This document shows, one piece after another, positions 14,691-30,289 of a stretch of DNA of 64,000 nucleotides. The notes under the pieces were generated by a model that did no database searches, was not told where the DNA came from, and saw only the letters and a program-made list of their open reading frames with translations. This DNA comes from Squalus acanthias (Eukaryota): assembly GCA_030390025.1 (NCBI GenBank), contig JASTWF010000034.1:3348001-3412000 (forward strand). The letters run 5' to 3'. The position numbers and the translations under genes are program-made. Position 1 is the stretch's first letter. The number at the start of each line of letters is the position of its first letter.

Positions 14691-17600
14691 AATAATAAAA
14701 TAGGATTAAAATCAATGATTTTATAATTCATTGGCTGAAACTAGATGAGGCCTGTGATCAGAGCGGGGCGTCAAGTACGCTAAACAAATTGTCAACATCA
14801 CTTGGATCTCCAATTCTATCGTTGTATGATTGATACTTGTCACACTATCCCAATTTCCCAATCATTACAAAATGCGCTTGATAAATATCACATATTACCA
14901 AAATTGAAGCCCAGGGGATTAAAGTGGCAGTGACAACAGTCTGTCAGCAATCGGTCAACAATTGGTCTGTTACAGTGAGAGGTTTTGAATATGTAAGAGA
15001 TGATTAAAGTAAGGGGTATATCAGAGTGGTACAGAGAGGTGTGTGAGGTATATCAGTGTGTTACTGTAAGGATGTGTGGGGTATATCAGAGTGTTATAGT
15101 CAGGGGCGTGGGTTTATATCAGAGTGTTACAGTGAGGGGTGTTGGGTATATCGATATTTACAGTGAGGGGTGTGTGGGGTATATCAGAGTGTTGTAGTCA
15201 GGGGAGTGGGTTTACATCAAAGTGCTACAGTGAGGGGTGTGGGGTACATCAGAATAACACAATGAGCGGTGTTGGGTATATCAGAGTGTTACAGTGAGCG
15301 GTGTCGTGTGTAACACAGTGTTACAATCAGGGGTGTGGATCTATAGGAGTGTTTTACATTGAGCGGTGTTGGGTATATCAGAGTGTTACAGCGAGGGGTA
15401 TGGGGTATATCAGTGTTACAGTGAGGGATATCGGGTATATCAGAGTGTTACAGTGAGGGGTGTCGGGTATATCAGAGTGTTACAGTGAAGGGTATGGAGT
15501 ATATCAGAGAGTGTTACAGTGAGGGGTGTCGGGTATATCAGAGTGTTACAGTGAGGGGTATGGAGTATATGAAAGGTTTTACAGTGAGGGGTGTCGGGTA
15601 TATCAGAGTGTTACAGTGAAGGGTATGGAGTATATCAGAGAGTGTTACAGTGAGGGATGTCTGGTATATCAGAGTGTTACAGTGAGGGTTTGAGGTATAT
15701 CAGTGTTATAGTGAGGGGTGTGGGGTATATCAGAGAGTGTTACAGTGAGGGATATGGAGTATATCAGTGAGTGTTACAGTGAGGGGTGTGGGGTATATCA
15801 GAGTGTTACAGTGAGTGGTGTGGGGTATATAAGAGAGTGTTACAGTGAGGGGTGTGGGGTATATCAGAGAGAGTTACAGTGAGGGGTGTGGGGTATATCA
15901 GAGTGTTACAGTGAGGGGTATTGGGTATATCAGAGAGTGTTACAGTGAGGGGTGTGGGGTATATCAGAGAGTGTTACAGTGAGGGGTGTAGGTTTATATG
16001 AGTGTTTTACATCGAGGGGTATGGAGTATATCAGAGAGTGTTACAGCGAGGGGTGTGGTGTATAACAGAGTGTTACAATCAGGGGTGTGGGTTTATATGA
16101 GTTTTTTACATTGAGGGGTGTCGGGTATATCAGAGTGTTACAGTGAGGGGTGTGGGGTATATCAGTGTTACAGTGAGGGGTGTGGGGTATATCAGTGTTA
16201 CAGTGAGAGGTGTCGGGTATATCAAAGTGTTACAGTGAGGGGTGTTGGCTATATCAGAGTGTTACAGTGAGGGGTGTGGGGTATATCAGAGAGTGTTACA
16301 GTGAGGGATATGGAGTATATCAGTGAGTGTTACAGTGAGGGGTGTTGGGTTTATCAGAGAGTGTTACAGTGAGGGGTATGGAGTATATCAGAGAGTTAGT
16401 GAGTGGTGTGGGGTATATCAGAGTGTTACAGTGAGGGGTGTGGGGTATATCAGAGAGTGTTACAGCGAGGGGTATGGAGTATATCAGAGTGTTACAGTGA
16501 GGGGTGTCGGGTATATCAGAGAGTGTTTCAGTGAGGGGTGTGGTGTATATCAGTGTTACAGTGAGGGGTGTGGGGTATATCAGTGTTACAGTGAGGGGTG
16601 TGGGGTATATCAGTGTTACAGCGAGGGGTATGGAGTATATCAGAGTGTTACAGTGAGGGGTGTGGCGTATATCAGAGAGTGTTATAGTGAGGGGTATGGA
16701 GTATATCAGAGAGGGTTACAGTGAGGGTGTGGGGTATATCAGAGAGTGTTACAGCGAGGGGTATGGAGTATATCAGAGTGTTACAGTGAGGGGTGTCGGG
16801 TATATCAGAGAGTGTTTCAGTGAGGGGTGTGGTGTATATCAGTGTTACAGTGAGGGGTGTGGGGTATATCAGTGTTACAGTGAGGGGTGTGGGGTATATC
16901 AGTGTTACAGCGACGGGTATGGAGTATATCAGAGTGTTACAGTGAGGGGTGTGGCGTATATCAGAGAGTGTTACAGTGAGGGGTATGGAGTATATCAGAG
17001 AGGGTTACAGTGAGGGGTGTTGGGTATATCAGAGAGTGTTACAGTGAGGGGTATGGAGTATATCAGAGAGTTAGTGAGTGGTGTGGGGTATATCAGAGTG
17101 TTACAGTGAGGGGTGTGGGGTATATCAGAGTGTGGTACAGCGAGGGGTATGGAGTATATCAGAGTGTTACAGTGAGGGGTGTCGGGTATATCAGAGAGTG
17201 TTTCAGTGAGGGGTGTGGTGTATATCAGTGTTACAGTGAGGGGTGTGGGGTATATCAGTGTTACAGTGAGGGGTGTGGGGTATATCAGTGTTACAGCGAG
17301 GGGTATGGAGTATATCAGAGTGTTACAGTGAGGGGTGTGGCGTATATCAGAGAGTGTTACAGTGAGGGGTATGGAGTATATCAGAGAGGGTTACAGTGAG
17401 GGGTGTCGGGTATATCAGAGTGTTACAGTGAGGGGTGTGGAGTATATCAGAGAGTGTTACAGTGAGGGGTATGGCGTATATCAGAGAGTTACAGTGAGGG
17501 GTATAGAGTATATCAGAGTGTTACAGTGAGGGGTATGGAGTATATCAGAGTGTTACAGTGAGGGGTGTGGGGTATATCAGAGTGTTACAGTGAGGGGTGT

Positions 17601-18840
17601 GGGTATATCAGTGTTACAGTGAGGGGTATGGGGTATATCAGAGTGTTACAATGAGGGGTGTGGGGTATATTAGAGTGTTACTGTGAGGGGTGTGGAGTAT
17701 ATCAGAGAATTACAGTGAGGGGTGTGGAGTATATGAGAGAGTTACAGTGAGGGGTATGGAGTATATCGGAGTGTTACAGTGAGGGGTATGGAGTATATCA
17801 GAGTGTTACAGTGAGGGGTATGGAGTATTTCAGAGTGTTACAGTGAGGAATATGGAGTATATCAGAGAGTGTTACAGTGAGAGGTATGGAGTATATGAGT
17901 GTTACAGTGAGGGGTGTGGAGTATGTCAGAGTGTTACAGTGAGGGGTATGGGGTATATCAGAGAGTGTTACAGTGAGGGGTGTGGGGTATATCAGAGTGT
18001 TACAGTGAGGGGTATGGAGTACATCAGAGTGTTACAGTGAGGGGTATGGAGTATATCAGAATGTTACAGTGAGGGTTATGGAGTATATCAGAGAGTGTTA
18101 CAGTGAGGGGTGTGGAGTATATCAGAGAGTTACAGTGAGGGGTATGGAGTATATCAGAGAGTGTTACAGTGAGGGGTATGGAGTATATCAGAGAGTGTTT
18201 AAGTAAGGGGTGTGGGGTATATCAGAGAGTGTTACATTGAGAGTTGTGGGGTATATCAGAGTGTTACAGTGAGGGTTATGGAGTATATCAGAGTGTTACA
18301 GTGAGGGGTGTGGAGTATATCAGAGAGTGTTACAGTGAGGGGTATGGAGTATATCAGAGAGTGTTACAGTGAGGGGTATGGAGTATATTAGAGTGTTACA
18401 GTGAGGGGTATGCAGTATATCAGAGAGTGTTACAGTGAGGGGTATGCAGTATATCAGAGAGTGTTACAGTGAGGGGTGTGGAGTATATCAGAGAGTGTCA
18501 CAGTGAGGGGTATGGAGTATATTAGAGTGTTACAGTGAGGGGTATGGAGTATATCAGAGTGTTACAGTGAGGGGTATGGAGTATATCAGAGAGTGTTACA
18601 GCGAGGGGTGTGGGGTATATCAGAGAGTGTTATAGTGAGGGGTATGGGGTATATCAGAGTGTTACAGTGAAGTGCATGGAGTATATCAGAGAGTGTTACA
18701 GTGAGGCGTGTGGAGTATATCAGAGTGTTACAGTGAGGGGCGTGGGGTATATCAGAGTGTTACATTGAGGGGTGTGGTGTAAATCAGAGAGTGTTACCTT
18801 GAGGAGCCTGGGTTAAAACGGTGTGTTACAGTGAGAGGTT

Positions 18841-19680
18841 TAAGAACATAAGAATGTAAGAAATAGGAGCAGGAGTAGGCCATTCGGCCCCTTGAGCCTG
18901 CTCCGCCATTCAATGACATCATGGCTGATTTTCTGTCTCAATTCCTTTCACCAGCCTTATCTCGATATCCCTTGATGCACTTAGTAGTCAGAAATCTATC
19001 GACTTCTGTTTTGAATATGCCCAATGACTGAGCCTCCACAGCCCTCTGGGGTAGAGAATTCCAAAGATTCACTACCCTCTGTGTGAAGAAATGTCTTTAT
19101 TAGAGTTAAATATATTTCTTAAGGCTAAAGGGATCAAGGGATATGGGGAGAAAGCAGGGATAGGGTACTGAATTTGGATGATCAGCCATGATCGCATTGA
19201 ATGGCGGAGCAGGCTCGAGGGGCCGAATGGCCTACTCCTGCTCCTATCTTCTATGTTTCTATGCTTCTATGCTTCTCATCTCAGTCCTGAATGGCCTACC
19301 CTTTATCATGAAGCTGTGGGCCCTGGTTCTGGACTCCCCAGCCAAGAGAAACATTCTCCCAGCATCCAACCTATCAAGCCCTGTAATAATTGTTTATGCT
19401 TGAATGAGATCCCCACTCATTCTTCTGAATTCAAGAGAATACTGGCCTAGTTTACTCAATCTCTTCTTATACGGCAGTCCCGCCTTCCCAGGAATCAATC
19501 TCGTGAACCTTCGTTGCACTCCCTCTTTGGCAAGTTTATCCTTCCTTAGGTAAGGAGAACAAAATTGTACACAGTACTCCAGGTGTGGTCTCTCCAAGGC
19601 CCTATATAAAGGGAGTAAGACTTCTTTACTCCTGTACTCAAATCCTCTTGTAATGAAGGCCAGCATACCATTAGCCTTCC
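18841..19680 (-). mobile_element. 5'-truncated CR1 (minus strand) containing a nested plus-strand CR1 tail at ~19098-19270
   Basis: Minus ORF MLAFITRGFEYRSKEVLL...HLEYCVQF with tail at 18841. The insert reads ELNIFLKAKGIKGYGEKAGIGY*, then 3' UTR and ttctatg repeats in the opposite orientation. Confidence 0.9.
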
Positions 19681-20185
19681 TTGGGGTATGTAAGACAGTG
19701 TTATAATCAGGATAGTGGGGTATATAAGAGTGTTGCAGTGAGAGGTGTGGTTTATATCAGAGTATTATAGTGAGGGGTGTGGGGTATATCAGATTATTAC
19801 AGTGATGGGTGTGGGGTACATCAGAGTGTTACAGTGAGTGGTGTGGGGTATATCAGAGAGTTACAGTGACGGGTGTGGCGTTTATCAGCGTGTCACAGGT
19901 AGGGGTTTGAGGTATATCAGTGGGTTACAGTGAGGGGTTTGGGGTATATCAGAGTGTTACAGTGAGGGGTGTGTGGTATATCAGAGAGTTACAGTGAGGG
20001 GTGTTGTGTCTATCAGTGTGTTACAGTGAGGTGTGTGGGTATATCAGTGTTACAGTGAGGGATGTGGGGTATATCAGTGTTACAGTGAGGGGTATATCAG
20101 TGTTACAGTGAGGGTGTGAGCTATATCAGTGTTACAGTGACGGGTGTGGGGTTTATCAGCGTGTCACAGGTAGGGGTGTGAGGTA

Positions 20186-23100
20186 TGTCGTAAGAATGAG
20201 CCTTACGCGTGGTGAACTTAAAGTAAGCTTTAATCAACTAAAAAGGTGCTACATACAAAAGAGGTCTTACTCTATGCCTCTCCAGGATCCAACTGCTCAG
20301 TCCAGTATTTATCCTGGACTAATCACAGGAAGTGATGCAATAAACTTCGAGTCACAGGAAGCTGTATTGTGTTACCACATTCTCCCCCCCCACAAAAAAG
20401 ATTAGGAGGCCGGGATGCTCCCTCGATTTCGTAGCCGCCGGACGAGGGAGAGCCGCACCCGTTTGGGTTCTCGTAGCGGTAGAGGGCCCCTAGCCCGTTT
20501 ACCCGCCGCGGGCCGTGGACCAGAGTCCGAGTGATCCAGCCCGCTCTGTGAGGGGTCAGGACGATCCTGACTGTGTACTGGTGCCCGAACGGGTGTCGGG
20601 CAGGGCTGTGGCAGATCCGTTTCCGAGCGTATGGTACGGGGTGGATCGTGGCTGCGCGTGCGAGCCCCGACGGGCTCATAGTCAGTCTGCCCCAGGTCGG
20701 CACGCTGGAGTGAGGTACCAGCCGGCGTCAGATCCAGATCGTGATGAGAGGCACCTGGCGAGCCCAGAGATGTGCCTGGTACAATATCATCCCCTGGTGT
20801 CCCTCTATGTTTCGGCGGGCAGGGAGCCAGATCCCGCAATGACACGGTAGATTCCCGACCGTCAGGATACCGAATATAGGCGTAGGTAGGGTTGACGTCA
20901 GTGAGCTCAACCTCATCTACCAGGGGGTTATTCTTAGACGCCCGGACATATCTTCGGAGTAGCACTGGTCCCGGTGCAGTCAGCCACGATGGGAGAGATA
21001 TCCCATAGGATGAGCGACGCTGAAATCGGAAGAACCGTTCATGAGGCGTCGTATTTGTGGCGGTCGAAAGGAGGGACCGTGTGGAGTGTAATGCGTCTGG
21101 AAGTACTGCTTCCCATTGCTGGTTGGATAGGCCCCGAGATCTCAAAGCCAGACGTACCGCATTCCAGATGATAGCGTTAAAACGCTCGACTTGCCCATTC
21201 CCGACTGGATGATAAGGCGTCGTTCTGCTGGCAGCAATTCCCCGTTCCGAGAGATAGGCCTTGAGTTCTCCTGACATAAAAGAAGGGCCCCGATCCGAAT
21301 GAACATAGGATGCCATGCCACAAAAAGCAAATACCTGCTCAAGGCAGCTGATAACCGTGGTCGTCAGCATATTGGGGCAGGGAAAGGCAAACGGAAAACG
21401 GGAATACTCATCGACCATGGTCAATAGATAAGTGTTGCGAGTTGAAGAGGGCAACGGCCCCTTAAAATCGATGCTAAGCCGTTGCATTGGCTGGGTCGCA
21501 TGTATGAGTATACCACCCGAGGGGCGGAAAAACTGAGGTTTCAATTCCGCACAGACTCTGCAGTCCGAGCACATCTTCTTTACATCCCCGGTAGAGAATG
21601 GGAGATTTCGGGACCGCACGAAGTGTAGCATGCGAGTAACGCCCGGATGACACAACCCATCATGGATGTCTACGAGCGTAGAGGGTGCCATGGCGGAGCA
21701 GAATGCTCGTGTGAGGGTATCCGGAGCCACATTCTCCTTGCCAGGTCGATAGTGGATGGTGTAACCAAAAGAGGCCAATTCCAGCCGCCAAAGCTGGATT
21801 TTATTATTTTTAATTTTGGTCCGTTTTCGATTATCGAGCATGAAGGCGACCGATCGCTTGTCCGTGATTAAGGTAAAGTGCTGGCGAGCTAGGAGATGAG
21901 TCCACTTCCGTACTGCCTCTATGATGGCTGTAGCTTCTTTCTCGACTGGAGGATAATGTAGCTCAGCCCCTTGAAAAGTCCTGGACAAAAATGCCACCGG
22001 ACGACCTTCCTGATTCAGAGTGGCCGAGATCGCCACCTCCGAGGCATCACACTCAACAACAAAAGGAAGACTCTCATCGATGGAGTGAAGAGCCGCTTTC
22101 TCCAACTGTTTTTTCAGGAGGTTAAAGGCTGCAACAGCCGCTGTGTCTAGTGGGAATGTGCTGGCCTTCAGTAGAGGTTGGATTCGGTCCGAGAAGTTAG
22201 GAATCCATTTAGCATAGTATGCAAACAGGCCGAGGGCCCGGCGCAAGGAGGCCGGATTCTTAGGTGGCGGGAGCTCTTGGAGTGGGCGAAGCCTTTCAGG
22301 GTCAGGTTTAATGATGCCATTGCCCACACAATAGCCAAGGATGTTGATGGTTGGTTGTGACTCAATGGATTTAGCCGCATTTAATGTCAAATTACGGTGC
22401 TGGAGTGCATCCCAAAATCGTTGGAGATTGGCGTCATGTTCCCGCTGATTGCGACCTGCGACAGTGATATTGTCCAGATAAGGAAACGTATCCTTCAAGT
22501 CTTCCTGTTTGACCAGGTCATCCATTGCTCGCTGGAAGACAGCCACTCCATTAGTGACCCCAAAGGGGAGGCGACGAAATTGATACAGCCGTCCATTGGC
22601 TTCAAAGGCCGTATACTGCTTGTCTGAGACCTTCAAGGGTACCTGATGATAGGCACTTTTCAGATCATATGTTGAGAACACCGTGTACTCAGCCAGTTTA
22701 TTAACCATATCATCGATGCGCGGCAATGGGTATGCGTCCAAGTCCGTATATTGATTGATGGTCTGTGAATAGTCAATGCACAGCCGTTTCTTGTGAGGTT
22801 GTAGAGGGTTCTTAACAATAACGACCTGGGCGCGCCATGGCGACGAACAAGGCTCGATGATATCCTCTGCTAAAAGCCGAGAAATCTCAGCCGCAATAAA
22901 AGACTGGTCTTCCTGACTGAAACGTCGTGACTTTGTTATAATCGGTTTGCATCGAGGAGGGATACTGGTAAACAGTGAGGGTTCATCCAGTGAAGCTGCT
23001 GACAATGCACAGAACGGTAATCGAGGTCCTATATTAGAAATAGTGAGTTCAGGTTTGGATCCGCCGAACTCAATGGTGAGCTTCTTATGCTGCTTTTGAA

Positions 23101-24630
23101 AATCCAGCCCTAAGATAAGATCACTACATAAGTCCTTGAGCACCGAAAGCCGGGTGGAGGGATACCTGTGACCATTAAGTGTTATTTCAACCATACAAAA
23201 GCCAGAAATTCTGGTATTAAGTGATGACTGAGCCATCGCAATGGCCTGGTCCGATGGGAAAATATGTAGCTTTAACTCTGCAACAATCTGTTCCCTAATG
23301 AAACTATCAGTGCTACCTGAGTCAATTAAGGCATCTAAAGTATGTCCATTAATTGATGCTTTTGTAGCTGCATGGAATAGGTTCTGAGGACAAGCAGCTG
23401 TAATTGGTGTCGTTGCACAAAGAGTGGCTGAAACTCTAGGTGTGTTTCTTCGAGAGAAAACCCGAGAGGAAGCACGATAGATTTTAGCCGGAACATCTTG
23501 ATAGGCCCTTACCGGGGCAGTTCGGTAGGACTTAGCTTGATAAGCCCTCGTAGAGGCTCTTGATAGGCAAACCTTTGCAAAATGACCCTTTTTGTTGCAA
23601 TGACTGCAAAACGCATTGCGAGCAGGGCAGAATTTCCGAGGGTGAAACTCATCACCACAAAAGAAGCATTTCTTAGATTGCCAAGAGGCTGCCACAGTGG
23701 GGTCATCATCCTCTTCATCAGTGAAGTCATCAGATTGATCGTCAGGGATAAAGTCCTCCCTAATAGAGTTCACCTGTGGCCTCTTAAATTGCCTGACTGT
23801 AGTTAAGGCAGCAGACCGAGGTCTGGGCACTGTATAAAGGTCTGCATTTCTTTTTGCCAGATCTAGAGAGCAAGCCATGTCATAAGCTCTCTGAAGCTCA
23901 AGTGTCTTACTTTCCAGTAGACGCTGGCGTATAAATGGGGAGGCAAGCCCGCAGATGAAAGCATCACGGATCATCTCTTCACGGTACAGCTCAGCTGAGG
24001 CCGCCTGAAAGTTACAGTCCATACTAAGTCTGCGAAGCTCTTGGAGGAATTTATCAATGGATTCCTCCGGCCCTTGTTGGGCTGTAGCTAGTAGATGTCT
24101 GGCATAGACCTCATTCGGTGTCTTAGTATATAGTCTTTTAAGCGTCCGAATTGCCTCCTCGTAACTGCCCCATTCCTCAACATACTGAAATACATTCGGA
24201 GTGACACAGTTGATGAGTATCCGCAACTTTGTGTCATTATCAGCCTTGCAATATTCGAGAAAATTGTCAAACGTGCGATACCAGTGTTTCCACACCTTAC
24301 CGGCTGCTGGGGTGTTTGGGTCCAAGTCAAGACGCGATGGTTTAAGGATGTTTTCCATGATGGGTGATTCCCTGGATCCTTAGTTCCGAGTTCGTCCAAA
24401 AAGTTTGAGTGCGAAGTTTTTCAAAGTTGATTAAATTGTCGTAAGAATGAGCCTTACGCGTGGTGAAATTAAAGTAAGCTTTAATCAACTAAAAAGGTGC
24501 TACATACAAAATAGGTCTTACTCTATGCCTCTCCAGGATCCAACTGCTCAGTCCAGTATTTATCCTGGACTAATCACAGGAAGTGATGCAATAAAGTTCG
24601 AGTCACAGGAAGCTGTATTGTGTTACCACA
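20186..24630 (-). mobile_element. Full-length Ty3/Gypsy LTR retrotransposon
   Basis: 194-bp TG...CA LTRs at 20186-20379 and 24437-24630 with 3 substitutions; 5-bp TSD AGGTA (20181-20185, 24631-24635); polypurine tract GGGGGGGGAGAA beside the 3' LTR (20380-20391); single intact ORF. Confidence 0.98.
20402..24358 (-). CDS. Gag-Pol polyprotein, 1318 aa, single frame
   Basis: Zn knuckles CFFCGDEFHPRKFC and CSHCNKKGHFAKVC; protease LIDSGS; RT YDLKSAYHQ, LPFGVTN, YLDN; RNase H CDAS...EKE...TD; integrase HDGLCH...CSDCRVC, IDFKGP, HSDRG, QVERFN. The order PR-RT-RH-IN is Gypsy-type. Confidence 0.97.
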   Translation of the reverse strand: MENILKPSRLDLDPNTPAAGKVWKHWYRTFDNFLEYCKADNDTKLRILINCVTPNVFQYVEEWGSYEEAIRTLKRLYTKTPNEVYARHLLATAQQGPEESIDKFLQELRRLSMDCNFQAASAELYREEMIRDAFICGLASPFIRQRLLESKTLELQRAYDMACSLDLAKRNADLYTVPRPRSAALTTVRQFKRPQVNSIREDFIPDDQSDDFTDEEDDDPTVAASWQSKKCFFCGDEFHPRKFCPARNAFCSHCNKKGHFAKVCLSRASTRAYQAKSYRTAPVRAYQDVPAKIYRASSRVFSRRNTPRVSATLCATTPITAACPQNLFHAATKASINGHTLDALIDSGSTDSFIREQIVAELKLHIFPSDQAIAMAQSSLNTRISGFCMVEITLNGHRYPSTRLSVLKDLCSDLILGLDFQKQHKKLTIEFGGSKPELTISNIGPRLPFCALSAASLDEPSLFTSIPPRCKPIITKSRRFSQEDQSFIAAEISRLLAEDIIEPCSSPWRAQVVIVKNPLQPHKKRLCIDYSQTINQYTDLDAYPLPRIDDMVNKLAEYTVFSTYDLKSAYHQVPLKVSDKQYTAFEANGRLYQFRRLPFGVTNGVAVFQRAMDDLVKQEDLKDTFPYLDNITVAGRNQREHDANLQRFWDALQHRNLTLNAAKSIESQPTINILGYCVGNGIIKPDPERLRPLQELPPPKNPASLRRALGLFAYYAKWIPNFSDRIQPLLKASTFPLDTAAVAAFNLLKKQLEKAALHSIDESLPFVVECDASEVAISATLNQEGRPVAFLSRTFQGAELHYPPVEKEATAIIEAVRKWTHLLARQHFTLITDKRSVAFMLDNRKRTKIKNNKIQLWRLELASFGYTIHYRPGKENVAPDTLTRAFCSAMAPSTLVDIHDGLCHPGVTRMLHFVRSRNLPFSTGDVKKMCSDCRVCAELKPQFFRPSGGILIHATQPMQRLSIDFKGPLPSSTRNTYLLTMVDEYSRFPFAFPCPNMLTTTVISCLEQVFAFCGMASYVHSDRGPSFMSGELKAYLSERGIAASRTTPYHPVGNGQVERFNAIIWNAVRLALRSRGLSNQQWEAVLPDALHSTRSLLSTATNTTPHERFFRFQRRSSYGISLPSWLTAPGPVLLRRYVRASKNNPLVDEVELTDVNPTYAYIRYPDGRESTVSLRDLAPCPPKHRGTPGDDIVPGTSLGSPGASHHDLDLTPAGTSLQRADLGQTDYEPVGARTRSHDPPRTIRSETDLPQPCPTPVRAPVHSQDRPDPSQSGLDHSDSGPRPAAGKRARGPLPLREPKRVRLSLVRRLRNRGSIPAS

Positions 24631-24919
24631 AGGTATATCAGTGTGTTTCAGTGAGGGGTGTGGTGTATATCACAGTGTTACAGTGAGGGGTGTCGTGTCT
24701 ATCAGTGTGTTACAGTGAGGGTGTGAGCTATATCAGTGTTACAGTGAGGGGTTTGGGGTATATCAGAGTGTTACAGTGAGGGGTGTGGTGTATATCACAT
24801 TGTTACAGTGAGGGGTGTCGTGTATATCAGTGTTACAGTGAGGGTGTGAGCTATATCAGTGTGTTACAGTGAGGGGTGTGGGGTATATCAGAGTGTTGCA
24901 GATAGGTGTGTGGTTTATC

Positions 24920-26038
24920 TGTGAAGGAGTAAGCCATAAAACCTATTCAGAAAAATACACAATTCTATCAAAGAATTCTGGCCTTATTAAAATATGACAA
25001 ACTGGGTCTGGAAATCTAGAAACCTAACTATGAAAAAGCTGTGAAAGCTTTCTGGCTATAGAGATAAGATAGTTGTTGAAACTGAATCAATAACCTTATT
25101 GAAACAGAAGTTTAAAGGCTGACCTTTCGGAACAAGACAATGGTTCACCCTGGTTAAGTTGTTCTAATTTACACTTCGTAAAGAAGCACAAACATCTGCC
25201 TTCGTAAAAATGACATCAAGTAAAACGCACCTGCCGTTACACCGCTTTGTTATGGGAAATTTAGAACACCTAGAGAAGAGACATAATTCTGTAATGCTAC
25301 CAGCTGTGGTGACTGTAAGAATTGCAGGGGTCAGCAGAAAAATGACTGGAGATAATTAGCTTACATCAGCAGAAAACCTTAAAGGAAATACCACTGGAAA
25401 AGTGTAAAAATATTTAACTCTCAAATGGGATAGTAGACTCGCTTTAAAGGGACAAGGTGATTCTTGGCTTCAGAGACGGCTCTGTATATCTCCAACTCTT
25501 TGTACCTCGGGTATCAAAGGTATTTGTTTTTGGTGGATATCCTGTAGAAAACTAAGAACTGTAAAACTGTAGCGAAGTTAAGATTTGAAAGTAAGGTTCT
25601 CTGATAATAGAATAGTAAGCTTTCTCCTTTTGGAACTGTTAATGTTGCGATTGACTCACCAACTGTAAATTACATGTCGGTTCTTTAATAAATCTATATA
25701 TTTTTAGAATTCTCTCACATAAGACTTCTGTATCAAGCTCGCGAACTCAATCACTGTGCACTCTTTGGTGAGGAGTTGCAGAATTCGGGGGAGTTTTCCG
25801 GACCCTCAGAATATCCGGAACGTTACAGTCTAGCTAAACTTATTAAAATTGCTATCTGGAGGACGGTAATATTTTCAGGTTGTTCCTTTCCTTTAGGGAG
25901 AGATAGTCCGGAGCTTTTGACCCAATTAAGCATCTTTAGGATTCGGCTACCTCAAAGCTTAGTTGAAAGTGAATGTCTGAGGAATACGCCTGATCCGGAG
26001 TCGCCCGAAATGGGCTGGGACTAGTAATTATCCCTTCA
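24920..26038 (+). mobile_element. Probable solo LTR, 1119 bp
   Basis: Unique sequence inside the satellite with TG...CA ends, short inverted termini (TGAAGG / CCTTCA), 4-bp TSD TATC (24916-24919, 26039-26042) and AATAAA at 25687; no coding motifs. Strand inferred only from the poly(A) signal. Confidence 0.75.
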
Positions 26039-26480
26039 TATCAGTGTGTTGCAGTGAGGTGTAAGGGTTAAATCAGAGAGTTACAGTGAGACATGTGGAG
26101 TACATGTCAGTGTTACAGTGAAGGGTGTGTGGTTATTCAGATAGTTAAAGTGAGTCGTGTGGGGTATATCAGTGTGTTACAGTGAAGGGTGTGGTGTATA
26201 TCAGTGTTACAGTGAGAGGTGTCGGGTAAATCACAGTTTTACAGCGTGGGGTGCGGCGTATAACAGAGTATTACAGTGAGGAGTGTGGGGTATATCAAAT
26301 TGTTACAGCGAGGGGTGTGTGGTATATCAAAGTGTTACAGTGAATGGTGTGGGGTATATCAGAGTTTTAAAGTGAGGTGAGTGGGGTATATCAGAGTGTT
26401 AAAGTGAGAGGTGTGTGATATGTAAGAGAATTTAAGTGAATGGTGTGGGGTTATTCAGATAGTTAAAGTGAGTCGTGTGG

Positions 26481-29120
26481 GCTAAGAAATAGCGAGGGGC
26501 GAAAAACATTAATAGGAGTGGTATATAGGCCTCCAAATAGTAAAATAGAGGTTGGGGAGGGCATCACGAGGGAAATTAGAGAAGCGTGCAATAAGAGCAC
26601 AGCTGTCATCATAGGTGACTTTAACTTACATATAGATTGGACTAGCCTAATCAGTAAAAATAATGAGGAGGAGGAATTCCTTGAGTGTTTAAGGGATGGT
26701 TATCTGGATCAATATGTCGAGGAACCAACTCGGGAACAGGCTATATTGGACTGGGTACTGTGCAATGAGAAGGGACTAATTAGTAATCTTGTTGTACGGG
26801 GACCCTTGGGTCAGAGCGATCATAACATGATCGATTTCTCACTCGAAATGGAGAGCGAAGAAATTGACTCAGAGACTCAGGTCCTGAATTTAAACAAGGG
26901 GAATTATGATGCCATTAGACGGGAACTGAGTAGGTCTGATTGGACAACGTTCCTGGGAGGACTGGAGGTAGATAAACAATGGCAAGCATTTAAAGATAGA
27001 ATGACAAAATTGCAAAAATTGTTTATACCAATCTGGCATAAAAGGAAATCTAAAAAGGTGACTCAACCGTGGATAACAGGGGAAATTAGAGACAGCATAA
27101 AATCCAAAGATAGGGCGTATAAAATAGCCAAAAAACGCGCCAGAGCGGAAGATTGGGAACAGTTTAAGATAGAGCAAAGGAGGGCAAAGGGCTTAATCAA
27201 GAAGGGCAAAATAGCTTACGAAAGCAAGCTGGCGGAAAATATAAAAACTAACTCCAAAAGCTTTTATAAGTATATCAAGAGGAAAAGACTGGTGAAAACC
27301 AAAGTTGGTCCATTGCAGTCAGATACGGGGGAATATATAATGGGAAATAAGGAAATGGCAGACCAACTAAATGCATACTTTGGGTCAGTCTTTACGAAGG
27401 AAGACACAAAAAACCTCCCTGGGATATCGGGAAAAATAGGGACATTGGCAAAGGAGGAACTGACGCAAATCAATATCTCTAAGGATATGGTGTTAAGGAA
27501 GCTAAAGGGATTGAAGGCGGACAAATCCCCAGGGCCTGATAACATGCATCCTAGGGTACTGAAGGAGGTGGCCCTAGAGATAGCGGATGCACTAAGCATG
27601 ATTTTTCAGAATTCATTAGACTCGGGAACAGTGCCCATGGATTGGAGGGTAGCTAACGTTACCCCACTATTCAAAAAGGGGGGTAGGGAAAAAGCAGGTA
27701 ATTACAGACCTGTAAGCCTTACATCAGTTGTGGGCAAAATGCTGGAGTCCATCATTAAGGATGAAATAGCCGAGCACTTAGCAAATGGGGACAGGATAGG
27801 ACAGAGTCAACATGGATTTACAAAGGGTAAATCGTGCTTGACTAATCTATTGGAATTTTTTGAGGGAGTAACTGGTAAAATAGATGGGGGAGAGCCAGTA
27901 GATGTGGTGTACCTGGACTTCCAAAAGGCCTTCGATAAGGTCCCACATAAAAGATTAGCATGGAAAATTGAAGCTCATGGGATAAAGGGGAAAGTATTGA
28001 CGTGGATAGAGAACTGGCTGTCAGATAGAAAACAGAGAGTTGGAATAAACGGCTCATTTTCTGAATGGCAGGCAGTAACAAGTGGGGTACCACAGGGATC
28101 TGTCCTGGGTCCCCAGCTGTTCACAATTTATATTAATGACCTGGATCAGGGAGTCGAATGCAGCATTTCCAAATTTGCAGACGACACTAAACTAGGAGGG
28201 GGGGTGGGCTCAGAGGAGGAGACCAGGAAGCTCCAGAGCGATTTGGACAGACTGGGTGATTGGGCGGATAAATGGCAGATGCACTATAATGTGGACAAGT
28301 GCGAAGTTATCCACCTTGGGTGCAGGAACGGGAGGGCAAATTATTATTTAAATGGCAATAAATTGGGAGAGGGGGAAGTACAGAGAGACCTGGGTGTTCT
28401 TGTACACCAGTCACTGAAGGCGAGCATGCAGGTGCAACAGGCGGTCAAGAAGGCAAACGGTATGCTGGCCTTCATAGCAAAAGGGTTGGAATACAGGAAC
28501 AGGGATACCTTGCTGCAGCTGTACAGGGCACTGGTGAGACCACACCTCGAGTACTGTGTACAGTTTTGGTCGCCTCATCTGAGGAAAGATGTTCTTGCCA
28601 TGGAGGGGGTGCAGCGGCGATTCACCAGGCTGATACCAGGAATGGCGGGATTGACCTATGAGGAGAGACTATGTAGTTTAGGGATGTACACACTGGAGTT
28701 TAGAAGATTGAGAGGGGACCTCATAGAAGTGTATAAAATTCTGACAGGTCTAGACAGATTAGATGCAGAAGGAATGTTTCCCTTGGCGGGTGAGAACAGA
28801 ACTAGAGGACATAATTTAAGGATAAGGGCTAAACCATTTAGGACAGAAATGAGGGGGAATTTCTTCACTCAGAGAGTGGTGAACCTGTGGAACTCATTGC
28901 CACAGAGGGCAGTGTACGCCAGCTCATTAAATATATTTAAGAGGGAATTAGATATATTTCTACAGGCAAAAGGGGTTAAGGGTTACGGAGAGAAGGCGGG
29001 GACGGGATACTGAATTGAAGGATCAGCCATGATCTCATTAAATGGCGGAGCAGGCTCGAAGGGCCGGATGGCCTACTCCTGCTCCTATCTTCTATGTATC
29101 TATGTATCTATGTATCTATG
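26481..29120 (+). mobile_element. Young 5'-truncated CR1 LINE with open ORF2 (26518-29013, 831 aa)
   Basis: Partial APE (VYRPP, IGDFN, SDHN), complete RT ([25 protein letters not shown]), 3' UTR and (ctatgtat)n tail; no stops. Confidence 0.97.
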
Positions 29121-30289
29121 TATATCAGATGTTACAGTGAAGGGTGTGGTGTATATCAGTGTTACAGTGAGAGGTGTCGGGTAAATCACAGTTTTACAGC
29201 GTGGGGTGCGGGGTATAACAGAGTATTACAGTGAGGGGTGTGGGGTATATCAAATTTTTACAGCGAGGGGTGTGTGGTATATCAAAGTGTTACAGTGAAT
29301 GGTGTGGGGTATATCAGAGTTTTAAACTGAGGTGAGTGGGGTATATCAGAGTGTTAAAGTGAGAGGTGTGTGATATGTAAGAGAATTTAAGTGAATGGTG
29401 CGGGGTATAACGGAGTCTTACAGTGAGTGGTGTGTGGTATATTGATGGTTGTTGGGTATATCAAAGTGTTACAGCGAGGGGTGTGGAGTATATCAGAGTG
29501 TTAAAGTGAGGTGAGTGGGGTATATCGGTCTGTTACAGTGAGAGGTTTGAAATATGTAAGAGAGGATTAAATTATGGGCTATATCAGAGTGTTAATGAGG
29601 TGTGTGAGTTATATCAGAGTGTTAAATTGAGGGGAGCGGCGTATATCAGAGTGTTAGCATAAGAGGTGTGGGGTATATCGGTGTGTTACACGAAGGCATG
29701 TGCGGGGTATGTCAGAGTGTTGTAATCAGGAGAGTGGGTTTGCATAAGAGTGCTACAGTTACGGGTGTGGGGTACATCAGAGTAATACAATGACCGGTGT
29801 GGGGCATATCAGAGTGTTACAGTGAGGGGTGTGGTGTATAACAGAGTGTTACAGTCAGGGGTGTGGAGTTATATCAGTGTGTTACATTGAGGGGTGTCGG
29901 GTATATCAGTGTGTTACAGCGAGGGATATGGAGTATATCACAAAGTGTTACAGTGAGGGGCGTGGGGTATAACGGTGTGCTACAGTAAGATGTTTGGGGT
30001 ATGTAAGAGAGTGTTACAGTCAGGAGTGTGGGCTATATCATTGTTATAGTGAGGGGTGTGGTTTATATCAAAGTGTTACAGTGAGGGGTTGTGGGGTATA
30101 TCCGTTTATTATAGTGATTGATGTGGGGTATATTAGTGTTGCAGTGAGGGGTGTTCAGTACCTGAATGTTACAGTGAGGTTTGTGGGGTATATCAGAGTG
30201 TTAAAGTGAATGGCGTGGGGTATATCAGAGTGTTAAAGTGAGGTGTGTGATCCATTACTCTTTAACTAATCCATGGGTACCTACCTGCT

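Follow-up and report, generated by a model that had tools for sequence, protein, structure and literature searches.

The 64,000-nt window analyzed here (Squalus acanthias, assembly GCA_030390025.1, contig JASTWF010000034.1, positions 3,348,001 to 3,412,000; coordinates below are those of this whole stretch) contains on its minus strand a complete long terminal repeat (LTR) retrotransposon whose primer-binding site (PBS) shows complementarity to its own LTR and not to the 3′ end of a transfer RNA (tRNA). The geometry of this pairing is that of Tf1 from fission yeast, and we infer that the element primes its own reverse transcription in a Tf1-like manner, a reading to which we assign a probability of roughly 0.8. 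The features of the element, listed from its 5′ to its 3′ side, are as follows.

20186..24630, minus strand: whole LTR retrotransposon, 4445 bp (direct repeat, LTR alignment, single open frame)
24631..24635, minus strand: target-site duplication TACCT, 5′ side (printed flanks)
24437..24630, minus strand: 5′ LTR, 194 nt, TG...CA (repeat pair and LTR alignment)
24557..24563, minus strand: ATAAATA, a TATA-like or forkhead-like box (pairwise LTR alignment with a second family of the host genome)
24480..24490, minus strand: predicted self-primer AGTTGATTAAA, LTR nt 141-151 (exact PBS complement; covaries in relatives)
24440..24458, minus strand: U5 hairpin CGUAAGG-5 nt-UCUUACG (minimum free energy folds; stops 4 nt short of the PBS)
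24436..24436, minus strand: spacer base A between the CA of the LTR end and the PBS
24425..24435, minus strand: primer-binding site TTTAATCAACT (pairs with the LTR of the element itself rather than with a tRNA 3′ end)
20402..24358, minus strand: gag-pol frame, from the ATG at 24358 to the stop (Pfam and open reading frame list)
22469..22480, minus strand: reverse transcriptase motif C, YLDN, where Ty3 has YLDD; residues 634-637 of the element's protein, P0001 (HMMER alignment to 7q5b_A)
20380..20391, minus strand: polypurine tract GGGGGGGGAGAA, adjoining the 3′ LTR
20186..20379, minus strand: 3′ LTR, 194 nt (repeat pair and LTR alignment)
20181..20185, minus strand: target-site duplication TACCT, 3′ side (printed flanks)

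The two LTRs, both of which begin with TG and terminate in CA, differ at 3 positions over 194 nt, and their borders are firm. The gag-pol frame, which runs from stop to stop over 24379..20402 (minus), encodes two CCHC knuckles, an aspartic protease, reverse transcriptase (RT), ribonuclease H (RNase H) and integrase, with a proline/arginine-rich tail after the last of these. Its Pfam matches (gag-asp_proteas, RVT_1, RT_RNaseH, RT_RNaseH_2 and rve) are Gypsy-type domains in the order PR-RT-RNase H-IN, and the best solved relative of the protein is Ty3 Gag-Pol (E 4.8e-59). Because it combines LTRs, a 5-bp target-site duplication, a polypurine tract, this domain order and Ty3 Gag-Pol as best solved match, the element is an intact member of Ty3/Gypsy (Metaviridae); membership in BEL/Pao was considered and rejected, given the Gypsy-type domains and the match to Ty3. 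The host sequence that received the insertion is an array of a satellite of about 32 bp (window ~15000-30000, with a unit like TGTTACAGTGAGGGGTGTGGGGTATATCAGAG), which is present on both flanks. No tRNA gene was detected in the window by ARAGORN.

Read on the minus strand, the 5′ LTR ends ...CTTACGACA at 24437 and is followed by a single A (24436), just as the original prediction had described. The next 11 nt, TTTAATCAACT (24435..24425), are the exact reverse complement of AGTTGATTAAA (24490..24480), a stretch within the LTR that contains ATTAAA. The limit of 11 nt that had been claimed for this match is likewise correct, with T opposite T on the outside and G opposite A on the inside, and inspection of the LTR end and its vicinity confirmed that no TGG, the trinucleotide expected for a tRNA CCA primer, is present. 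A small hairpin that had been noticed in U5 (CGTAAG-7 nt-CTTACG at 24458..24440) is also there, and it recurs in the minimum free energy (MFE) fold of 24490..24400, which consists of the 11-bp helix and this hairpin (-13.9 kcal/mol, z -2.71) and is equaled in stability by 1 of 200 shuffles. The MFE fold of the second host-genome family places a U5 hairpin at the same position as in the window copy. When the 25 nt after the LTR were shuffled 20,000 times, a match to the LTR of at least 11 nt arose in 22 instances, and the 21-nt string spanning the LTR end and the PBS occurs once in the window, with 0 occurrences expected.

Relatives of the element were collected at the protein level and from metagenome contigs. 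The protein search listed 120 homologues with 55-89% identity; the entries that have names, like the members of their clusters, are all "uncharacterized", and their hosts are a catshark, a tunicate, mussels, a shrimp, a sea louse, a whipworm and a sea anemone. A search of the ESM Atlas returned only generic Gypsy clusters. From 581 relatives detected on metagenome contigs, we retained the best 80 (68 loci). Among the 47 loci that measure at least 3.8 kb, self-BLAST revealed direct-repeat pairs in 18; the pairs of L031, L043 and L058 are assembly wrap-arounds within coding sequence, and a weaker LTR search found no LTR pair in 18 further loci. The families that were compared, namely the second host-genome family and the metagenome families, show 45-70% protein identity. 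Separately, 50-82% of the element's sampled 31-letter words are present in sequencing runs of five coded organisms (A-E), which points to near-identical copies in several labeled species.

The inverted repeat found in the window copy recurs at the same place in these relatives. For this comparison, a test set of 22 5′ regions was assembled from the window and 21 metagenome loci with a match that begins close to the N-terminus. In 17 of the 22, the longest inverted repeat within the 260 nt before the start codon is perfect, spans 9-17 nt and has a 3′ arm that begins directly after the ...CA(A) of the LTR end, and the junction ...CA-A-TTT... is common to most relatives. Shuffled 5′ regions reached 11 nt in 2 of 440 cases and 9 nt in 34 of 440. 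Additional pairings were seen in L096 (14 nt), L042 (14 nt) and L048 (12 nt, formed with the 3′ LTR copy, its 5′ arm lying beyond the start of the contig), and in L060 the pairing extends over 13 nt including one G-U. L048 is one of the five members of the test set outside the 17, the others being L071, L043, L054 and L095. Within ~1-245 of L095, a fragmentary relative, there is in addition an inverted repeat, perfect over 20 nt (TCCCGATTCTCACTCCCGAT paired with its complement across a 57-nt loop), that sits 139 nt upstream of the presumed start and is unrelated to the PBS pairing.

The two arms change together. Fourteen distinct arm sequences were found, in which the outer 6-10 nt differ yet stay complementary. 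Each PBS pairs with the LTR of its own family over a median of 13 nt (range 9-16); with LTRs of other families the median drops to 5 nt, and the cross pairs of at least 11 nt (12 of 182) all fall among four families that have the AGTTGATTAAA core. In a MAFFT alignment of the 14 sequences, on which covariation was computed, a 13-bp helix has 94.0% of its cells paired. The corresponding value is 75.4 +/- 1.8% in shuffles, and it falls to 21-48% in slid controls, in which one strand is displaced by 1-3 columns. Changes on both sides occur in 9 of the 13 pairs (31 cells), and RNAalifold predicts the same 13 pairs from the alignment alone. The covariation score is 0.521 versus 0.152 and was reached by none of 500 shuffles, although such counts are not probabilities and, since the sequences are related, the shuffle controls may overstate significance. 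The slid controls are independent of this relatedness, as are two pairs of loci in which a single event can be read directly: between L037 and L041, G>T in the arm is accompanied by C>A in the PBS, and the 47-nt loop enclosed by the arms differs at one base, and the near-isogenic L035 and L040 vary as T/C on the arm side and as A/G on the PBS side. The test of PBS/LTR covariation that accompanied the original prediction therefore gave a positive answer, in that the pairing is kept in related families by means of compensatory changes, and the proposal of a self-priming Gypsy element is supported to that extent. The sequences show the anatomy of the element, the place of its pairing and a compensatory conservation of that pairing which extends across a whole clade.

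Two families of the clade reside in the host genome itself (3.71 Gb). With the stretch from LTR to PBS as query, 1345 first-look candidates were obtained, and all 40 of the 40 that were scored are 98-100% identical. Both 11-mers are unchanged in 30 of 30 fetched loci of the window family, which shows that this family is young and that its uniform 11-mers are uninformative on covariation. A second genome query, made with the homologue P0108, yielded 22,932 candidates. Of these, 51 places were scored; they show 61% identity to P0108, and 31 of them have an open frame of 1315 amino acids. Four fetched places (L099-L102) belong to the second family, the protein of which is 68-72% identical to P0001. 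The LTRs of these copies are 215-217 nt long and 99.1-100% identical, and the copies are flanked by 5-bp target duplications. Their pairing extends over 13 nt, CAAGTTGATTAAA with TTTAATCAACTTG, and again begins one base past the LTR. The second family is also very young.

By analogy with Tf1, priming could proceed through the following series of steps, of which the transcription start, the cleavage and the copying of the primer into the plus strand are predicted from the arrangement of the sequence. In Tf1, for which self-priming has been proven, the RNA anneals to the PBS through its first 11 nt and is cleaved by RNase H between nt 11 and 12 (PMC7175516, PMC10085805). In the window element, the LTR arm AGUUGAUUAAA (11 nt), as the predicted 5′ end of the genomic RNA, would anneal to the site one base past the 5′ LTR; the corresponding primer-length stretch in relatives is 12-16 nt. 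The resulting helix would close a loop of ~36-79 nt holding one or two small hairpins. The element's RNase H would then cleave the RNA where the annealed stretch ends on its 3′ side, after ...AAA, and the freed 3′-OH would be extended through the spacer A at 24436 and U5, yielding minus-strand strong-stop DNA that would jump to the R region of the 3′ LTR. Because the plus strand would copy the primer, the PBS would be rewritten from the LTR arm in each cycle, which could account both for the perfect match in young copies and for the coupled changes of the arms. The outer limit of perfect pairing would indicate where the primer begins, with 24490 as its predicted 5′ end and as the start of R, and the ATTAAA within the arm may serve the 3′ LTR as its poly(A) signal, giving an R of roughly 25-30 nt.

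The folds of related families are consistent with this scheme. MFE folds contain the helix in 13 of 13 families, where it closes a loop with one or two hairpins. A hairpin is stacked directly on the 3′ end of the primer in 7 of the 13 folded families, and in the window copy and several other families a hairpin ends 1-5 nt before the PBS. In many relatives (L033, L037, L041, L046, L076 and others), the PBS ends 1-5 nt before the gag ATG, and in these the priming helix would cover the context of the start codon.

Several observations weigh against self-priming as just outlined, beyond the caution on shuffles given above. The inner 5 nt of the arms (TTAAA/TTTAA) are nearly constant, so they carry no covariation signal, and a poly(A) signal could be the reason for their constancy. 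One locus, L097, pairs over 13 nt with one mismatch; L071, an old copy whose LTRs are 93.9% alike, has only 7 nt of pairing left; and in L043, L054 and L095 no pairing was detected where it was expected, and the 5′ ends of these loci are probably mis-set or missing. Of 16 sequencing runs listed, four were compared with 24050-24650: a raw poly(A) RNA run and one other gave 0 reads, and the contigs of the other two break at the LTR border, as DNA assemblies do, so that no RNA end was seen. The most specific objection concerns the promoter. A TATA box is expected ~30 nt upstream of a start. ATAAATA, the sole U3 motif that is conserved between the two host-genome families, lies 73 nt upstream of the arm in the window copy and 91 nt upstream in the second family, which is too far to set the start at the arm, and if this box is a TATA box, the arm is internal to the RNA. 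Moreover, no TATA-like motif is present in 10 of the 13 families inspected, and one near -30 was seen only in L036. As a separate observation, a TTTTGT/TGTA-rich stretch is found at 24491-24515 (minus), 10-24 nt upstream of the arm, and likewise in L033, L035, L046, L097 and L099; it may serve as an upstream element for poly(A) addition, or else belong to the core promoter.

The position of ATAAATA leads to an alternative form of self-priming, in which the arm is internal to the RNA. Transcription would begin ~40 nt upstream of the arm, some 30 nt after ATAAATA, or the primer would be supplied by the copy of the arm in the 3′ R, either in cis or from the second packaged RNA. That the box has been retained while the rest of U3 diverged speaks for such an arrangement, as does the location of the poly(A) hexamer within the arm, which would place the arm in the 3′ R as well. 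We nevertheless regard this alternative as unlikely. The box stands at different distances from the arm in the two families, it has no TATA-like counterpart in most of the others, and the start of the arm itself coincides with an initiator-like TTA-GTT (YYA-G-T) that the alignment reveals to be common to most families. Perfect complementarity ends sharply at 11-16 nt, as would fit a primer whose 5′ end is the end of the RNA, whereas an internal arm would need a second trimming step for the primer; by the retroviral scheme, a long unpaired 5′ tail would, if copied, block the second strand transfer.

Another alternative is a host primer. In this explanation the helix would serve packaging, dimerization or translation control, and the true primer would be a host RNA such as an internal tRNA fragment. 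The 3′ arm lies at most 5 nt from the ATG or overlaps it in 10 of 17 positive loci and could mask the start codon, although the PBS of the window copy ends 65 nt from its ATG. The 3′ arm lies exactly at the PBS position, one base past the LTR CA, in every family, and a site bound by a tRNA should stay constant, whereas this one changes together with its own LTR. Host tRNAs were sampled by an Rfam search of the genome (63 matches, 30 loci), among which ARAGORN recognized tRNA-Lys(UUU) and tRNA-Cys(GCA), so the original claim that the site has no tRNA partner was compared directly with two isoacceptor types, represented by 7 distinct sequences: the longest complement to these is 5 nt, which is below the background (4-9 nt) obtained with random pieces of the element. 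A tRNA primer is therefore disfavored mainly by the covariation and by the absence of TGG from the junction, and together these render a host primer very improbable. A chance inverted repeat would be conceivable for the window copy considered in isolation, its arms being short and AT-rich and 11 nt being attainable in the shuffles described above. In 14 families, however, arms of differing sequence pair at the corresponding position, at a level of covariation that no shuffle attained; this refutes the explanation, and we reject it. Self-priming from an arm at the predicted 5′ end of the RNA is the reading that we favor.

A second distinctive feature of the clade lies in the RT active site. Among the 118 informative homologues listed, motif C reads [YF]xDN in 102 and xxDD in 16, and self-pairing is found in the YLDD families L042 and L048 as well. 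The same substitution in motif C is described for nematode BEL/Pao elements in two reports, which leave its effect on activity open (PMC554778, PMC9094657). Because families with this motif have identical LTRs and thousands of copies, YxDN must be compatible with activity. No report of YLDN for a Gypsy clade was found in the literature that we searched, and the supplements of PMC6238403 hold no sequences with YLDN or YLDD.

The closest mechanistic precedent is the Tf1/sushi group, represented in our comparison by Tf1 and Tf2 (S. pombe), Tj1 (S. japonicus), sushi-ichi and its relatives, and the Tcn1-like elements of fungi and non-seed plants. We know of no element other than Tf1 of fission yeast for which self-priming has been proven. 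As in this group of Ty3/Gypsy elements, the PBS of the window element adjoins the 5′ LTR and is complementary to its own LTR (PMC7175516, PMC10085805, PMC4600332, PMC6317226). The primer of the window copy is 11 nt long, as in Tf1, and the hairpin in U5 occupies a place beside the PBS that corresponds to that of the U5-IR in Tf1. Self-priming is described as a common feature of the Tf1/sushi group, a monophyletic sublineage of chromoviruses whose integrases end in a chromodomain (PMC10085805). In contrast, the clade of the window element lacks the chromodomain that marks this chromovirus branch, has mostly the YxDN motif in RT and occurs in aquatic metazoans of several phyla. The original prediction had noted the missing C-terminal chromodomain, and indeed no Pfam Chromo match was obtained for the element's protein at E<=0.1. 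PF00385 is likewise found in 0 of the 120 homologues listed, and in the host genome it was detected only in short, host-like frames of at most 251 amino acids, which provide no chromovirus for comparison.

The structure around the primer also appears to be simpler than that of Tf1. The Tf1 RNA is described as forming a "pretzel", in which the primer:PBS helix is joined by two duplexes between PBS-adjacent sequences and the LTR downstream of the primer (PMC10085805). An inner duplex or hairpin beside the PBS, corresponding to one part of this structure, is present in the window copy and several relatives. A third duplex, sought by pairing the 25 nt that follow the PBS against the loop, was not detectable in 13 of 13 families, the best candidates spanning 5-8 nt including G-U pairs and being equaled by 42-197 of 200 shuffles per family; in many relatives the 25 nt after the PBS are already coding sequence. 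The missing chromodomain and the missing third duplex are the grounds on which the clade may be considered a lineage separate from Tf1/sushi. It may be a sister group of Tf1/sushi that lost the chromodomain, or may lie among tRNA-primed lineages, with an independent origin of self-priming.

Two further groups of elements invite comparison. Steamer, an element of bivalves, belongs to the Mag lineage of Ty3/Gypsy. Like the window element, Steamer is compact (~4.4-5 kb) and has short LTRs (194 bp in the window element) and a single gag-pol with two zinc knuckles, and Steamer-like elements also share its marine hosts and a spread across phyla; these elements are described as compact and marine, with LTRs of 177-187 bp, a single gag-pol with two zinc knuckles and cross-phylum occurrence (PMC8905726, PMC11046912). 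Unlike the window element, Steamer has the PBS TGGTGTCAGAAG (tRNA-Leu) directly after the LTR, MchSLE1 has a PBS for tRNA-Asn, and both are described with YxDD (PMC8905726, PMC11046912). The string spanning the Steamer LTR end and PBS gave 40 matches in the host genome, compared with 68 for a reversed control, which is the level of chance. Beyond the Tf1/sushi group proper, both Tcn1-like elements and the TAR lineage of plant Ty1/copia elements (Houba, Osr-1) have been predicted to self-prime (PMC6317226). The TAR lineage resembles the window element in that self-priming is deduced from LTR/PBS complementarity outside Tf1/sushi, and differs from it in belonging to another superfamily, with the Copia domain order, and in having plant hosts. 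In our literature search, which did not extend to Repbase and GyDB, no report of self-priming was found for a chromodomain-less metazoan Gypsy clade.

Comparative evidence thus offers good support for self-priming in this element, by a mechanism that is known and in a lineage that is probably not the classical one. For the broader proposal, we see the odds as even: a large clade of compact, chromodomain-less Ty3/Gypsy elements would self-prime independently of or apart from Tf1/sushi, by way of a two- or three-helix junction and mostly with a YxDN RT. This clade would include elements of sharks, tunicates, molluscs, crustaceans, nematodes and cnidarians, and would still be very active in the host genome. 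The breadth of the mechanism, the simpler structure and the YxDN active site are the points of specialist interest; in particular, the presence of YxDN in an evidently active clade informs on the tolerance of the RT active site. The families constitute natural compensatory mutants, such as the near-isogenic L037 and L041, for the study of primer recognition and cutting. For genome annotation, pipelines that identify LTR elements by seeking PBSs of the tRNA type will mis-score these very abundant elements. Priming that does not depend on a host tRNA may, if the proposal is true, partly explain the ease with which the clade crosses the borders of phyla. A second, chromodomain-less clade of self-priming Gypsy elements in animals would, if true, mean that the mechanism is older or more easily re-invented than has been thought.

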